From Candidatus Thorarchaeota archaeon (GTDB taxonomy: Archaea; Asgardarchaeota; Thorarchaeia; Thorarchaeales; Thorarchaeaceae): a DNA stretch of 64,000 bases. How positions within the stretch are numbered: the stretch's first letter is position 1; every line of letters begins with the position of its first letter. Made by a program: the position numbers and the translations under genes. Location of the stretch: positions 160,001-224,000 of the forward strand of contig JAWOEX010000035.1 in assembly GCA_046482545.1 (NCBI GenBank), written 5' to 3'. Below the pieces are notes generated by a model. It was not told the origin of the DNA. It saw only the letters and a program-made list of their open reading frames with translations, and did not search any database. Of the stretch, positions 16,230 through 45,474 are shown piece after piece.

Positions 16230-17339
16230 ATGTCATATTTTAGAACTGATTCGCGGATAATCCTAGCATTGGTAGCTGTGCTACTTCTATCGACAGCACT
16301 CCATATTCCGGTAGAAGCTCAGACGGAAAACCTTGATCCTGTTGTCGTTATGTATGATGAGAGTCATTCGCAGCAGTTCTCTGCTGATGACGAGGAGGAT
16401 GGAATCAAGCTAATGCTCGATATGGTAAACGACTCGAGCAGGTATCTTGTGAAGACCAACAGTGAAAACCCCCTCAATTTGACCACGCTTAGTGATGTAG
16501 ATATCTTAATACTTGCCGATCCTGATGCTTCTGCTCCTTTTGAGAAGGAGGAGATTGCTGGAATATCTGATATGCTCTCTAATGGCAGCTCTCTTCTTAC
16601 TCTAGGAGATCCCAAAATTGACCAAAATTCTACCTACTGGAAGGAAACTGCCTTCAGAGATATAGGTGAGAATGATGCATTGAACAGACTCTTTTCTTCT
16701 ATCAATATGACCGGGGTGAGATTCAGTGTTAACGAAACCACATCCGGTGTGATACGGGCAGATTCTCTTTTTGATTATGAGCATGCATTGAATGAAACAT
16801 CTCCCCAACTAATAGAGCTGGATGCTACAACTTGGAATTCAGACCATCCTATTTTCAATGATATAAACCGCTTGGTTACAATGACTGCGACACTCAAACC
16901 AATTGATGCGCCAAGTGCTATAGCTACTGGTTATGAAACGTCATTTGCACAGTATCGCAGGGGTCCGAACACATTTGGTAACACCTCATTTCCAAATATG
17001 ACTCTCTCCGAATTTGAGGAGAAGCCGTTCTCCTATTCCGCAATAAACGGAACATTCCCGCCATGGTTATCCGCCTTTGAATTCAATAGCAGTAGAGTTG
17101 TAATCGGTGGATCGACGATAATGTTCTCTGGACGAGTACTTGATTTGCATGAGAGTGACGACAGGTCAAGCGAACAATGGTTTTACCAAGCAGATAATTC
17201 TCGACTCTTCATGAACATGCTAAACTGGCTATCGGAGGATTTTGTTACTGCTCCTGAAGCAATATACCCTCTCCTAGTAATCTCTTCAGTCATATTGCTG
17301 GTTGGGGTGGCGTTCTACGTTTTCAAGAAGCTTCGGTAA
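16230..17339 (+). CDS. Type I membrane glycoprotein with a GIFT/WBP1-like domain
   Basis: Signal peptide, YDESH, DILILADP, SRVVIGGSTIMFS, DN..LF.N.LNWLS, C-terminal TM helix, ends KKLR; 11 N-x-S/T sequons. Confidence 0.6.
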   Translation: MSYFRTDSRIILALVAVLLLSTALHIPVEAQTENLDPVVVMYDESHSQQFSADDEEDGIKLMLDMVNDSSRYLVKTNSENPLNLTTLSDVDILILADPDASAPFEKEEIAGISDMLSNGSSLLTLGDPKIDQNSTYWKETAFRDIGENDALNRLFSSINMTGVRFSVNETTSGVIRADSLFDYEHALNETSPQLIELDATTWNSDHPIFNDINRLVTMTATLKPIDAPSAIATGYETSFAQYRRGPNTFGNTSFPNMTLSEFEEKPFSYSAINGTFPPWLSAFEFNSSRVVIGGSTIMFSGRVLDLHESDDRSSEQWFYQADNSRLFMNMLNWLSEDFVTAPEAIYPLLVISSVILLVGVAFYVFKKLR

Positions 17340-17947: not shown

Positions 17948-20806
17948 CTACCAAAACTGGCGTGTTCTTGCGTACTGCCTTTCAGCCTTTGCGATTTCTC
18001 GCAGTAATGATATTCTATCCATTGTACTAGGCCTCAAAATTCTTGCCGCAGTAGTTGGGCCAATCCCTCGTCCCGCTAGAGTAAGCAGAGCTTTTCTTCC
18101 ATAATTGGCAACCAGAGTTGCAGCCAGATTTGCCTTCTCTAGGATTCTTTCGTCTTCACTTGTTAACTCTTGCCCACGGTGAGCTTTCTCCAAAGCCTTC
18201 TCCAATCGACTAGAAGATGATCTTCCAATTGCAATCATCTTCGACTCACAGGTCGGGCATCTGATTGTTGATTCGAGTGTTGAGATTGTTCTTATTGTAT
18301 GCCATGTGCAATTAGTACAAACTAGCTTCACTTTCTTGGATTCCAGACGGTGCTGCATCACATTCAAGATTTCTCGCTCTTCTGTAACCTCTCCAATGAC
18401 TTCAAACCGCGTACGCGTTTCAACAATGAGATTGGCAAGACTAGATGGCTTCTCTCTCTCAAGGCACATAACCTCTATGAATCCATCCTGAACCTGTTCG
18501 AATATCCTTACTGTCCTTTTCTCATCCAGCTTGTCCTGCAAGACTTCTGCAACCGCGGCGGCAAAGACTGGTGTACTTTCCATGCTCTCCATAAGGCGAT
18601 TTACAGGCAGGGAAGTAATCTGCACATCGCGGCGAATAACCCCCATTCTTCTCGCAACATGGATGAATCTTGATTCAAGCGTTCGAGTCTTCTTGAGTGC
18701 CATCTCTAGAATAGCAGACACTTGCTCAGGCGTGTACTCTTTAAATACATCTGTAACTAACTCTCCATCGATTTTTTCATCTGCTGTCAGTAACACTCGA
18801 TATGGATCACTTTCGGCTGCTATATCTCCGCCAACTCTTGTACCAAGTAATGCGGAAAGAAGTATCGCAAGCGCATCATTTGTTTTGGTCCCGAATGGAG
18901 CGTGAAGGACAAGCCCTCCTGGAAAGCTCTCGACGATGAGCCGTTTTGTTTCAGGGAGTTGACCCAGCTCATTCTTCGCCTGTTCTATTTCCTTGATTAC
19001 ATACTCTACTGCCCTATCTTCAAGCCCATAGGACGATTTAAGCCAGTTACGAGCATCCCTCTCCTCTCTACTTACTATATCATTCATGACGCTTGATACT
19101 TCAGATGCTACCTCATATGGTACCGGAATATTCTCACCAATCCAATGTGGGGCCTCAAATTGGCGGCCTCCAGCTGGTGCACAGATGATTTCTTCGTCTT
19201 CGACACTTATTATCTCCCAAGGCTTACCACGAATGACAAAAACATGACCCGGCTCAAGGCTGCTAACGTAGTTTTCATCCAATACTCCCACTGGTGCTCT
19301 TGTTGCTGCATCAACGACCACAGACTGCTGAACATCAGGTATTGTTGAGAGGTGGGTATAATAGAACGTGAGCACTTTCCACCCACGAGATACTGAAGTA
19401 TCATTCAAGCTGATGTAGCCCTTATTCTCCATGAAACGGAGCAGCTCTAGAAGTTGCTTCCTTTCCACGCTTTTGAATGCATAGGAACGCCTGACGAATT
19501 TCAATAAATCTTGGACTGAAACCTCTTCTCTATCGAGCAATATTCCACATATCTGATGACACAATACATCCCACGCATGGCTTGGAGTCTTTGCTTCTTC
19601 AACTCTGTTGAGTTTGGCCCGCCGAAAGATAACACCAGCTTCCAAAACGTCATCGATATTCACTGTAGCAATGATTATGCCTTTCGCAATCCCTTCAAGA
19701 GTGTGCCCGGATCTTCCTATTCTCTGTAAGCCTCTGGACACCTGCCGGGGACTAGAATACTGCACTACTAAATCTGCTTCTCCTATATCAATGCCTAATT
19801 CCAAACTGGAAGTTGCAATGATACCCTTGGAAGCACCCTCTTTCAGCCTCTGTTCTGCTTCTATTCTGGCCTCTTTAGATAGAGACCCATGATGTACATC
19901 AAATTCAAAGTTCGGTTCAAGGACTCTCATCTTCGAGCCAAGAACTTCTGTGAACGATCTTGTATTAGTAAAAACGAGCGTCGACTTGTGGTTATCAATT
20001 AGGTCAATTATTCGCCGAAGGCGTGCCATCGAGTGTGGTGGGTAGTATATCTTTCTTCCAAGCTCATGATCCTTAGACGTTGGAGTGGGCATTTCAACAT
20101 TCAAATTCATTCTTCTGGCCCTATATCCCGCCCAAACTATTGTTGCCTTACTGACCTCTGTCTCAAGCAGACCAGCAACTTCTTTGGGATTTCCCACTGT
20201 GGCGGATAAACCGATTCGCTGTACATTAGAATTGGTAATCGAATCTAGTCTCCCAAGCCCCAAGCTCAGCTGAACCCCCCGCTTTGTACCTGCAAGTTCA
20301 TGAACTTCATCAATAACAACGGCAAAAACCGTTTGCAGGTGATATCTAAGACGTCTCCCGGGTAGGATTGCCTGCAGTGTTTCAGGTGTAGTTATTAACA
20401 GATTGGGTGGCTTGATTGCTTGTTTTCTTCTTTGGTATTGGGTAGTATCACCGTGTCGTACATCGACAGTAATTCCAAGCTTCTCGCATAATTCTTCGAT
20501 TCGGCGAAACACATCTCTATTTAACGCTCGAAGGGGCGTAATGTAGAGAACATAGAAACCAAACAATTCTTTGTCTAGACTTCTTTCATACAGTATATTC
20601 AACAACGGCAAGAGCGCAGCCTCAGTCTTACCACTACCTGTTGGTGACAACAAGAGAGCATTCTTCCCGCTCAATATCGTTGGTATGGCATCTTCCTGAA
20701 TTGGTGTAGGTTCCTCTATGCCCTGTTCCTGCAACAGTTGAGTGAGCTCTCCCGATAGAGAGTCGAAGGCATTCATGGAGAAGGCTTCCGTGTTTTCAAA
20801 CCTCAC
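17948..20806 (-). CDS. lhr: Lhr-family SF2 helicase with C-terminal zinc finger
   Basis: SPTGSGKTEAA, YITPLRALNRD, TTPETLQ, DEVHEL, GLSATV, HHGSLS, ATSSLELGIDIG, QRIGRSGH; CTNC...CPTC. Confidence 0.9.
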   Translation of the reverse strand: MRFENTEAFSMNAFDSLSGELTQLLQEQGIEEPTPIQEDAIPTILSGKNALLLSPTGSGKTEAALLPLLNILYERSLDKELFGFYVLYITPLRALNRDVFRRIEELCEKLGITVDVRHGDTTQYQRRKQAIKPPNLLITTPETLQAILPGRRLRYHLQTVFAVVIDEVHELAGTKRGVQLSLGLGRLDSITNSNVQRIGLSATVGNPKEVAGLLETEVSKATIVWAGYRARRMNLNVEMPTPTSKDHELGRKIYYPPHSMARLRRIIDLIDNHKSTLVFTNTRSFTEVLGSKMRVLEPNFEFDVHHGSLSKEARIEAEQRLKEGASKGIIATSSLELGIDIGEADLVVQYSSPRQVSRGLQRIGRSGHTLEGIAKGIIIATVNIDDVLEAGVIFRRAKLNRVEEAKTPSHAWDVLCHQICGILLDREEVSVQDLLKFVRRSYAFKSVERKQLLELLRFMENKGYISLNDTSVSRGWKVLTFYYTHLSTIPDVQQSVVVDAATRAPVGVLDENYVSSLEPGHVFVIRGKPWEIISVEDEEIICAPAGGRQFEAPHWIGENIPVPYEVASEVSSVMNDIVSREERDARNWLKSSYGLEDRAVEYVIKEIEQAKNELGQLPETKRLIVESFPGGLVLHAPFGTKTNDALAILLSALLGTRVGGDIAAESDPYRVLLTADEKIDGELVTDVFKEYTPEQVSAILEMALKKTRTLESRFIHVARRMGVIRRDVQITSLPVNRLMESMESTPVFAAAVAEVLQDKLDEKRTVRIFEQVQDGFIEVMCLEREKPSSLANLIVETRTRFEVIGEVTEEREILNVMQHRLESKKVKLVCTNCTWHTIRTISTLESTIRCPTCESKMIAIGRSSSSRLEKALEKAHRGQELTSEDERILEKANLAATLVANYGRKALLTLAGRGIGPTTAARILRPSTMDRISLLREIAKAERQYARTRQFW

Positions 20807-21013: not shown

Positions 21014-21115
21014 CTACTCTTCCTGCTCCTCTCCGTAGACAGAATAGGCTAGAATGATCAGCAATGCAGCTATGGCCATTGCATTTAGCACGATTCCTAT
21101 CAATTCAGTTTGCAT
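21014..21115 (-). CDS. 33-aa single-TM mini-protein, OST4-like (not in the ORF track)
   Basis: MQTELIGIVLNAMAIAALLIILAYSVYGEEQEE*; ATG preceded by GAGGT; fills the gap in the elf1-lhr gene run. Confidence 0.6.
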   Translation of the reverse strand: MQTELIGIVLNAMAIAALLIILAYSVYGEEQEE

Positions 21116-21201
21116 AATACTCAAGTTACCTCGCTAAAATTCTACTTATAATCGTTCCTCAAGTCCATCCATAAAAAAGAAATGGCCATTACTATGTTCA
21201 T

Positions 21202-21586: not shown

Positions 21587-21823
21587 TTGATGACTGATTT
21601 ATCTCCGAACGAAAAATGTGTGCTGCAGATTCTTGAGCATGAGGGTCCACTAACTACTGCAGATCTCATCAAGGCATCTCGTTCCAGTGAGTACTCTCAT
21701 TTATGTACTGGTTGTGCAGGCGGAGACGCAATCCTCTCAGCAGCCCAGAGTCTTCTTCATAGTGGTTCTATCTCACGAGAACTTGGGAAGGACGGCTATT
21801 GCTGGCATTTGAAGGTTGAATGA
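21587..21823 (+). CDS. Small winged-helix-like protein with CxxC
   Basis: LSPNEKCVLQILEHEGPLTTADL, CTGC, LLHSGSISRE; stop overlaps the next start. Confidence 0.55.
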   Translation: MMTDLSPNEKCVLQILEHEGPLTTADLIKASRSSEYSHLCTGCAGGDAILSAAQSLLHSGSISRELGKDGYCWHLKVE

Positions 21824-36606: not shown

Positions 36607-37032
36607 TTGTTGAAGCCTTGGTGGCCTAAGATTATTGTCAAACCGAGATTGAGACTTGGAAGGCCGCGATTTGGGATGCCCAGTCGACCGCCCGACATCG
36701 TAATCTTCGGTGTAGTTTTCCTTGGCCTTCTCTTCATTCTTGGTGGGAATATCTACACACTTGTAAAAAACCCTCCCGCCATCGCTGGTGGTCAAGATAA
36801 TCAGCCTATCTTGGTTGCACCGGGCACTAATCAGCAGCTAGGTATGGAAGGAATCGTAGCATCTTTCGTCATATTCATGGGCACTGTGGGATTGGGACTC
36901 ATCTACTATGCATCGAAGTATGTATTCAATCCCGGATACGCAACCCGATTACTTGTACTTGGAAGTATTCTTGCTGGCCTCGCATTCCTAATATTCGCCT
37001 ATCTATATGGTGTTAAAACGGGTCAATTTTAA
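36607..37032 (+). CDS. OSTC/DC2 (OST3/OST6 membrane domain)-like oligosaccharyltransferase subunit
   Basis: Three TM helices; KPRLRL..P, LGGNIY..V..PPAI, NQQLGMEGIVASF, terminal K.G.F. Confidence 0.8.
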   Translation: MLKPWWPKIIVKPRLRLGRPRFGMPSRPPDIVIFGVVFLGLLFILGGNIYTLVKNPPAIAGGQDNQPILVAPGTNQQLGMEGIVASFVIFMGTVGLGLIYYASKYVFNPGYATRLLVLGSILAGLAFLIFAYLYGVKTGQF

Positions 37033-40624: not shown

Positions 40625-43402
40625 ATGTCACGATTTAGTAGATTCAAACGGTCTGCTGAGAGATTCTTTGGGAAAGCTTTCCATAAGCCTAGGGCAGAAA
40701 TTAACCGTGGCTCAGTTATGTTGATTGCTTCTTTGGCCCTCATTTTCTTTGCTGCACTAGGAGTACGTTTGGCGCCTCTCATTGATGCTCAGCCTTTGGT
40801 TCGCGCTTTCGATCCTTGGTTCCAACTTCGGGTGACTGAATATATTACCGATCAGGGATTTGGAGCTTTCTTCAGCTGGTATGATGAATCAACATGGGTT
40901 CCATACGGTCGTAACATGACTGAGACAAGCTACATCGGTGTTCCATTTACTAGTGCTTTCTTCTATATGCTGATGAATAACTTGGGACTTAGTATCAGTA
41001 TCAAATATGTTTCACTGATTATGCCTGCTTTTATGGGCGCGCTCACTACAATTGTCGCCTTTTTCCTTGGAAAAGAAATTTCGAATAATACCGTTGGTCT
41101 ACTTAGTTCATTATTCATGGCTTTCATGCCCGCATTTATTCAGAGAACTGTTGCAGGTTTCTATGACAACGAATGTATTGGTGTATTTGCTATTGTCTTA
41201 GGTCTCTATTTCTTTACTAGGTCTATTAGGAGAGACTCTCTATCTTCAGGTGTACTCGCTGGTCTTTCTTTGGCCTATTTACGAGCATCTTGGGGGGCAG
41301 GAGATTTTCTATTAGTCCTATTTGCCTTGTATGCCTTTACAATGCTGCTCTTTGGAAGGTATAGTAAAAGGCTCCTTTCCTCCTATGTAATCACCATCTC
41401 TTTGGGGCTTTTTGTGAGTGGTCTTGTACCTAGAATTGGATTTGGTAACCTCACTTCCTTTTCTCTCCTTGTTCCCATTGGTGTAGCATTTCTACTTGTT
41501 GGATACGAAATATGGCTAAGAATTGGGGCCTATCGGAGAGCAACAGCTGAGCTTCTTGCCCCTCACATGCGTTCGATTGGGTTGGGTCTGCTCACTTCAG
41601 TTGTCGCTGTAGCAAGCTACTTCATCTACGCAGGGGAGAGAGCTCTAACAATTACTCCATACAACACGAACCCTGTCATTAGACTCGGTGGCAAATTCAT
41701 TACAGCCATTAATCCCTTCTATCGTTTAGATGAACGGATTTTCGCGTCCGTTGCTGAACATCTTCCTAGCCCCTGGAGTAGTTTCTATCAGACCCTTTCT
41801 GTCCTAATTTTCTTCTTTCCATTGGGAATGTATTTTGCTTTCAAAAGAGGGAAAGACGAGGATTGGCTTATCCTCCTGTATGGGCTTGCTTCAGTGTATT
41901 TTGCAGGAAGTATGATTCGCCTTTCACTGATCCTTGCGCCGGGTGTTGCGGTACTTTCTGCAATTGCAATCAACAGAGTACTTTCTCCCTTCGCTAGAAT
42001 CGTAACTGAAAAGACAGTTTTCGAGAGACGCCGGTTTAGGATGAGCAAGTCGCTCACATCTGAACATGCTCTCGCCGCTTATGCATTTGTTGGGCTTCTC
42101 CTCGGTGTCAATTTGATTCTCGGTGTGCAATATGCGACTAACCAAATCCAAAATCCTGAGTTTGCGCGTTCGCCATTGTCTGAGGAAAATCAACAGACCG
42201 ACTGGCAAACTGCGATGACATACGTGAGGAATGTACTACCAGATGATGCAATTGTTGCAAGCTGGTGGGACTATGGCTATTGGTTGAATGGAGCAGGAGG
42301 CACGCAGACCATCGTTGATAATGCGACATGGAACAGCACACAAATTGCAAAAATGGGATATGCATTGATGGCACTTAATCTGACAGAGTCACTACGCACA
42401 TTCAAAGCTTGGAATGCCTCCCATGTAGTGGTTAACTGGGGTCACGGTATTCAGGGTTTAGGTGGAGATGAAGGAAAGTGGCCATGGATGGTCAGGATTG
42501 CTGAAGACAAGCTTGGCACCGCCGTCATAGATGATGAGACCTATCTGGGTGATGATCCTTCAACCCCAGATACTGAAGAAAGCGAAGCTACGCTTGAGCC
42601 ATTCTATTCTTCAACACTATTCAAGCTGCTTAGCTACGGCGAACCCGCGTCTGCTCAAGCTGCTCAGCAACAAGCTCAGCAAGGGACCTTGCCCCAAGGA
42701 CGTGCGAGCATCGATGCAAGCGATGGATCCTACGCCAATGATGAAAAGTGGACTTCTCATATGCCAGTGAATCTGCATGGTGCATTCAAACCTCCGTATT
42801 ACAGTTCACCATATGGTATTGTCAAGATATACGAGATCGACTATACGATGTACTACCAGTGGCTCAACCGTAGCAATGCTGACTGGGTGCTAGACAAGAA
42901 TACGCTCTCTGGAGTATCCATGGATGGGAGTCTTTCTGGTGCTGAAGAGGGCTTTAGCAAGTTCGATATTGTATTCGGTGGTGGATACAATGCATCAGTG
43001 TATTCCGCTGCAAATTCAACCCATGTGTACTATGGCATCAAAATGAACAACTATACAAATACGGAGGACGCAATCGGGTTCCAAATTGCTCCGGTTGATA
43101 ATCCTGGAGAGGCTGATATCCGGGTAGCAAACTTCAGTGGTCAAGAATACTATGATGGAAATGTAGGCTATAATGGAGAATGGGCAGAAGACTCCAGCGG
43201 TAGTAACTCAACCGAACTCGCTGGTGGAGCCAATTTCACCGAGTTCCTACTCCCATTGGATAGCGGAGACTCACAGGATACAATCATGTCTCCTGGAATG
43301 AACTACCAAATCCGTTTCATGTTCTGGAACAACATCCGGAGCGGCGAACCAACATTTACTTCCGATTGGAAGAGCTTCTGGGTTCCAATTGAACTCTACT
43401 AG
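40625..43402 (+). CDS. aglB: Oligosaccharyltransferase catalytic subunit STT3/AglB with C-terminal DOMON-like domain
   Basis: FDPWF, GFYDNE, SVAEH, WWDYG, DNATWN, DEGKWPWMVRIA; many TM helices. Confidence 0.95.
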   Translation: MSRFSRFKRSAERFFGKAFHKPRAEINRGSVMLIASLALIFFAALGVRLAPLIDAQPLVRAFDPWFQLRVTEYITDQGFGAFFSWYDESTWVPYGRNMTETSYIGVPFTSAFFYMLMNNLGLSISIKYVSLIMPAFMGALTTIVAFFLGKEISNNTVGLLSSLFMAFMPAFIQRTVAGFYDNECIGVFAIVLGLYFFTRSIRRDSLSSGVLAGLSLAYLRASWGAGDFLLVLFALYAFTMLLFGRYSKRLLSSYVITISLGLFVSGLVPRIGFGNLTSFSLLVPIGVAFLLVGYEIWLRIGAYRRATAELLAPHMRSIGLGLLTSVVAVASYFIYAGERALTITPYNTNPVIRLGGKFITAINPFYRLDERIFASVAEHLPSPWSSFYQTLSVLIFFFPLGMYFAFKRGKDEDWLILLYGLASVYFAGSMIRLSLILAPGVAVLSAIAINRVLSPFARIVTEKTVFERRRFRMSKSLTSEHALAAYAFVGLLLGVNLILGVQYATNQIQNPEFARSPLSEENQQTDWQTAMTYVRNVLPDDAIVASWWDYGYWLNGAGGTQTIVDNATWNSTQIAKMGYALMALNLTESLRTFKAWNASHVVVNWGHGIQGLGGDEGKWPWMVRIAEDKLGTAVIDDETYLGDDPSTPDTEESEATLEPFYSSTLFKLLSYGEPASAQAAQQQAQQGTLPQGRASIDASDGSYANDEKWTSHMPVNLHGAFKPPYYSSPYGIVKIYEIDYTMYYQWLNRSNADWVLDKNTLSGVSMDGSLSGAEEGFSKFDIVFGGGYNASVYSAANSTHVYYGIKMNNYTNTEDAIGFQIAPVDNPGEADIRVANFSGQEYYDGNVGYNGEWAEDSSGSNSTELAGGANFTEFLLPLDSGDSQDTIMSPGMNYQIRFMFWNNIRSGEPTFTSDWKSFWVPIELY

Positions 43403-45285: not shown

Positions 45286-45474
45286 CTAGACTAAAATATG
45301 GGAAACGACCATTGCAATTAGGAGTATAGCCGCGAAAATGACAACAACAGTAGGTCCAACTTTGATTCCTGGTGTTTCATCTTCAAAGAACCGGATAAGA
45401 CCGGCACCACCAGATGGCATTGGCCCTTCACCGCTACTTCTACTTCGTCCTCGTTTCTTGCGCTTCTTGGGCAT
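45286..45474 (-). CDS. secG: Protein translocase subunit Sec61beta/SecG
   Basis: AGLIRFFEDET.GIKV.P followed by one TM helix. Confidence 0.92.
   Translation of the reverse strand: MPKKRKKRGRSRSSGEGPMPSGGAGLIRFFEDETPGIKVGPTVVVIFAAILLIAMVVSHILV

Follow-up and report, generated by a model that had tools for sequence, protein, structure and literature searches.

The window analysed here, a stretch of 64,000 nucleotides of Candidatus Thorarchaeota DNA, contains a short open reading frame (ORF) at positions 21014 to 21115 which raises the question of whether Asgard archaea possess a counterpart of OST4, the single-helix protein that accompanies STT3 in the eukaryotic oligosaccharyltransferase (OST). 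The original prediction proposed this identity as a possibility and was aware of no earlier description of an archaeal OST4. The suggestion that none exists is wrong: Eme et al. (2023, Nature 618:992, PMC10307638) reported Ost4 and Ost5 homologues in most Asgard classes.

A membrane microprotein gene beside elf1

The ORF encodes 33 amino acids and, as originally predicted, begins with ATG and is preceded by GAGGT; its strand, previously unstated, is the minus strand. The ATG occupies positions 21115 to 21113 and the stop codon ends at 21014, while on the plus strand the same interval reads as nonsense. The GAGGT motif (21128 to 21132, minus strand), a possible ribosome-binding site, lies 12 nucleotides before the ATG, and similarly spaced purine-rich motifs occur at the microprotein loci of many relatives, their conservation not being strict. 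Because Met-Gln opens all 30 orthologues of the same family, the ATG is the start, rather than an alternative in-frame TTG at 21124, from which the product would be 36 residues long. AlphaFold2 predicts one helix, spanning residues 2 to 27 (mean pLDDT 89) and including Tyr24, ahead of an acidic tail. The 30 orthologues likewise end in Tyr-x-x-Tyr/Trp-Gly followed by an acidic tail, and 40 of 49 members of the wider family have a tail with a net negative charge.

The ORF is a genuine protein-coding gene for a protein with one membrane helix, and it is under purifying selection. Conservation of the ORF next to elf1 in relatives had been named in advance as a check on the prediction, and an orthologue lies directly downstream of elf1 in all 30 elf1 loci of the same family. 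Majority-base identity among these orthologues is 0.69, 0.86 and 0.46 at codon positions 1, 2 and 3, respectively. Comparison of the window copy with two genomes of the same genus gives a pN of 0.07-0.10 against a pS of 0.53-0.61, and stops interrupt four of the five other frames in 25 to 28 of the 30 sequences.

Read along the minus strand, the genes are elf1 (21423 to 21202; Pfam Elf1, E 8e-17), which is the upstream neighbour throughout the family, the microprotein, a 63-amino-acid ORF (20994 to 20803) and an lhr-like helicase gene (17948 to 20806, minus strand). The slot between elf1 and lhr, initially described as otherwise empty, thus holds a second conserved gene, whose four-helix product is without a Pfam match and has as its top Foldseek match Pyrococcus PF2048.1 (TM 0.86, 29% identity, E 0.09). 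In the window this 63-residue ORF is about 10 residues shorter at its end than its relatives in the same genus, and it closes at a TGA that overlaps the GTG start of the lhr ORF. On the other side of elf1, a 78-amino-acid winged-helix-like ORF with a Cys-x-x-Cys segment (21587 to 21823, plus strand) overlaps the start of a gene for a SufS-like desulfurase. Further away, the plus-strand gene at 16230 to 17339 encodes a 369-amino-acid protein with a hydrophobic N-terminus, one C-terminal membrane helix and an ABC_transp_aux (GldG-like) match slightly below the cut-off; proteins resembling it occur near elf1 in other Asgard genomes. A link of this protein to WBP1/OST48 is not shown, since it has no PDB sequence match.

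Distribution across Asgard archaea

Pfam and NCBIfam miss the microprotein family, the gene is usually unannotated, and the public database entries that we checked carry either no name or the label "hypothetical protein". Profile searches recover the gene in 85 of 86 genomes of the Thorarchaeota family, namely that of the window and 84 of 85 others. With the family extended by three rounds of profile search and the reading of loci, it matches at E ≤ 0.005 in 248 of 400 genomes, with a single copy in almost every case, and members were read from 20 Asgard families in total. The first profiles missed most families of Heimdallarchaeia, the class being recognised here by Ca. Heimdallarchaeum aukensis. 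One member of that class was located between lhr and a dinB-like gene, and a profile including it matches 56 of 83 Heimdallarchaeia genomes at the loose threshold of E ≤ 0.05; all 27 Heimdallarchaeia loci that were read contain short membrane ORFs of the microprotein type. A search of 1.84 billion proteins returned 20 matches, all of this type. None of 29 genomes from a single archaeal phylum outside Asgard gave a match, a sample too small to claim Asgard specificity.

Some Thorarchaeota genomes (G162 and G391) have a second copy, which in G162 (L122:3001-3117, plus strand) lies away from elf1, amid genes for membrane proteins. In the largest Asgard family sampled (f9; loci L125, L129, L131, L135, L138 and L142) an Obg/YchF-like GTPase gene adjoins that of the microprotein, and the microprotein ORFs often have a hydrophobic N-terminal extension of 15-40 residues which might be a signal peptide.

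Sequence likeness to OST4

Like eukaryotic OST4 (PF10215; PDB 1RKL, 2LAT, 6C26, 6EZN, 6S7O, 6S7T), the microproteins are about 33-45 amino acids long with one helix, and the OST4-like size claimed for the window copy is confirmed. A Tyr is present in 48 of 49 members, at positions 24-30, compared with position 25 in OST4. Ten residues ahead of it, both the yeast and the human OST4 have L/F-G-I/V, a motif shared by most members of the window's own family (26/29) and by 23 of 48 pan-Asgard members. The Tyr-His of OST4 is found in 18 of 22 aligned Heimdallarchaeia members and in one other family, and one Njordarchaeota member has His-Tyr. The family differs from OST4 in its acidic C-terminal tail, in having His after the Tyr in some Asgard lineages only and in scoring below the Pfam cut-off; the window copy itself has Ala in place of Gly at -10 and Ser in place of His after the Tyr.

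The markers on which the original prediction relied fare unevenly. The Tyr is close to invariant, while the Asn 13 residues before it, cited together with an I-x-x-N pattern, occurs in 11 of 29 own-family and 4 of 48 pan-Asgard members; as yeast Ost4 has Ile at this position, Asn is not a marker of the OST4 family. The M-x-T-D/E start is not conserved. The tail is present as described, its character being acidic rather than merely polar.

Profile comparisons provide additional clues. When aligned to the family profiles, yeast and human OST4 (1RKL and 2LAT) fall into one ungapped Gly(-10)/Tyr(0) register. With pan-Asgard profiles, yeast Ost4 is outscored by only 2-10 of the 1313 membrane segments of the window's own genome (top 0.2-0.8%), and human OST4 ranks by PSSM in the top 7-13% of the same segments; profiles built from the own family only or from Heimdallarchaeia only have no preference for OST4 over membrane segments. 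In hhalign comparisons, 2 of 300 nulls reach the score of yeast Ost4 and 8 of 300 that of human OST4. When the small membrane ORFs in intergenic regions of its genome, 26 in number, are compared, the microprotein is also the most OST4-like, by a lead of one point over the next.

Formal homology searches remain below threshold. The profile search with the Pfam Ost4 model, proposed at the outset, gave no match above threshold: no member reaches the 25-bit cut-off of PF10215, the best attaining 16.6 bits (E 0.0073), and a weak match is seen in 4 of 49 members, the window copy not being one of them. A PF10215 search of the window's genome and 251 Asgard genomes gave no match above the cut-off; most of the sub-cut-off matches looked at were segments of larger genes or fortuitous ORFs, and none belonged to the microprotein family. 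PDB sequence profile searches with four alignments (A1, A3, A7 and A8) did not retrieve OST4, and Foldseek with the single microprotein helix, an uninformative query, found no match. Since yeast and human OST4 themselves match at only E 0.08, these failures constitute weak evidence. With no member at the Pfam cut-off, descent from a common OST4 ancestor is suggested, not shown. A weak match at L117 was dropped from the family, being without context and without the motif. No second OST4 candidate was found beside aglB, either in the window or at 20 distant loci.

Predicted docking on AglB and alternative scenarios

The predicted partner of the microprotein, the catalytic OST subunit AglB/STT3, is encoded in the same window (40625 to 43402, plus strand; Pfam STT3, E 5e-54). 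It is single copy in its genome, its top PDB match is human STT3A (E 7e-85), and its best solved relatives are the eukaryotic STT3s. A homologue of DC2/OSTC, of the OST3/6 family (36607 to 37032, plus strand; Pfam OST3_OST6 over the cut-off, human OSTC E 1.6e-6), lies 3.6 kb upstream of aglB. The same genome has a ribophorin-I match slightly above the cut-off and a two-helix Ost5/TMEM258-like protein (L146:1417-1680, plus strand, contig C10) at a sub-cut-off Pfam E of 0.004. Given AglB and these DC2/OSTC-, ribophorin-I- and Ost5-like proteins, an OST4 would have the partners that it needs. Counterparts of all three components of the eukaryotic OST subcomplex II (STT3, OST4, and DC2 or Ost3/6) would be encoded within the 64 kb of the window; they are not in one operon, and their assembly is inferred. 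Downstream of aglB, at a distance of 1.9 kb, a 62-amino-acid ORF (45286 to 45474, plus strand) reads like a Sec61beta/SecG protein. The cytoplasmic loop between TM12 and TM13 of AglB (window positions 42017 to 42058, residues ~465-478) is Arg-rich and net positive in all 45 aligned Asgard AglBs.

Docking with this AglB had been put forward from the outset as a check. ESMFold2, supplied with AglB residues 25-745 (45-row alignment) and the microprotein (49 rows), returned ipSAE values of 0.79, 0.78 and 0.79, against 0.00 for the best of three controls, which are not stated to be membrane helices. For calibration, 58 of 80 pairs with a solved structure attain the ipSAE mark, compared with 2 of 110 mismatched pairs, figures that with custom alignments serve as a rough guide only. 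The runs have at least 94% of contacts in common, with a partner pLDDT of at least 78. Predicted contacts fall on AglB residues 28-54, 154-167, 450-461 and 486-505, that is, on TM1, TM3, the end of TM12 and TM13 in hydropathy numbering, which places the microprotein between TM1 and TM13, at the Ost4 site. Yeast Ost4 is lodged between TMH1 and TMH13, and growth is severely impaired when charged residues are substituted within its positions 18-24 (PMC7226087); the best-defined contact residues of the microprotein, 13-21, overlap the equivalent of this segment. As STT3-OST4 structures have been solved, the pass may reflect memory of those complexes, and it attests to likeness rather than to binding of the window copy. 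Conservation of AglB at the predicted interface does not exceed that of the remainder of the same helices (0.50 vs 0.59).

The orientation of the helix can be approached from the same model. The order of the contacting pairs runs antiparallel to AglB TM1 and TM13, so the N-terminus of the microprotein would be outside and its C-terminus inside. OST4 has its N-terminus in the lumen and its C-terminus in the cytosol. Under the positive-inside rule, the acidic tail lends this orientation no support.

Other scenarios have to be weighed. The microprotein could be a functional analogue which binds AglB at the Ost4 site and arose independently of eukaryotic OST4. That every homology score is sub-threshold fits this scenario, as do the ease with which a one-helix groove filler might evolve and the acidic tail and Thorarchaeota Tyr-Ser/Thr/Met, both unlike OST4. 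Nevertheless, the length up to the Tyr, the register and the Gly spacing are the same as in OST4, Heimdallarchaeia members and one Njordarchaeota member have Tyr and His side by side, the other OST subunits of the genome are true homologues, and weak scores are to be expected from the yeast-human comparison; we consider an independent origin improbable. Slightly less probable still is that the protein is an accessory helix of some other membrane machine, such as a translocon, an ion pump or a transporter regulator (cf. MgtS, KdpF, regulins), its OST4 likeness and docking being generic. Sec61beta, Sarcolamban, SecF and other single-helix families do match weakly in Pfam and NCBIfam at E-values like those of Ost4, the ESM Atlas has no match at 0.9 or above and only MgtS/YldA-like neighbours under that value, and the complex prediction covered one partner, AglB. 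Yet none of these family matches comes close to its cut-off. The AglB model, both confident and reproducible, has the helix at the known Ost4 site, with the score falling to 0.00 when AglB is replaced, and a separate Sec61beta-like ORF appears to lie downstream of aglB.

Gene neighbourhood opens one more scenario, in which the microprotein would regulate, or anchor to the membrane, the Lhr/SWIM/metallophosphoesterase module that is usually encoded next to it. The most frequent neighbours among 56 microprotein loci are lhr (20/56), the commonest across Asgard, and a SWIM-like gene (18/56), and this linkage persists in several Asgard classes. Neither aglB nor a DC2-like gene adjoins the microprotein at any of the 56, a point against an OST4 role. 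Several lineages, however, keep the gene among unrelated neighbours (a GTPase gene, a HerA-like ATPase gene/rps3ae, an RPA-like gene), and the protein is almost devoid of a soluble part with which to bind a helicase, so that a role in this module is highly improbable. The persistence of the microprotein despite changing neighbours counts in favour of an OST4 role.

Overall, we favour as quite probable that the microprotein is the counterpart of OST4 in Asgard archaea and works on AglB as a non-catalytic component of an oligosaccharyltransferase with several subunits; that it shares ancestry with eukaryotic OST4 is a slightly less secure, though still likely, proposition. The original prediction is partly supported: the predicted docking at the Ost4 site, the ungapped register and the Tyr-His of Heimdallarchaeia favour an OST4-like role, homology scores stay below threshold, and several markers first cited fail. 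In the model, the helix of this OST4 counterpart would run antiparallel to TM1 and TM13 of AglB, with its N-terminus out and its C-terminus in, and would fill a groove lined by TM1, TM3, TM13 and the last part of TM12. By analogy with yeast Ost4, it may stiffen AglB and help to retain the DC2/OST3-type subunit. Its acidic cytoplasmic tail might conceivably pair with the basic N-terminus of AglB and the Arg-rich TM12-13 loop, a plausible but speculative pairing, as cytoplasmic loops are commonly basic.

The family is likely to correspond to the Ost4 homologues of Eme et al. (2023), whose reported presence in most Asgard classes fits the wide distribution described here; sequences, a motif or docking for Asgard Ost4 were not found in the text consulted. 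A study of the translocon of MK-D1 published in 2024 does not list OST4 (PMC11417166). In a bolder scenario, which we regard as unlikely, the pan-Asgard family would represent the true ancestor-type OST4 and be either distinct from, or far broader than, the family listed by Eme et al., a complete STT3-OST4-DC2 assembly would predate eukaryotes, and Tyr-His would derive from a Heimdallarchaeia-like lineage. Asgard relatives of OST4 were already claimed in 2023. The present results are supporting detail rather than a surprise; they furnish that brief claim with actual sequences, a motif and an interface prediction. If the assignment is true, it would support the view that the archaeal ancestor of eukaryotes possessed an OST of several subunits.
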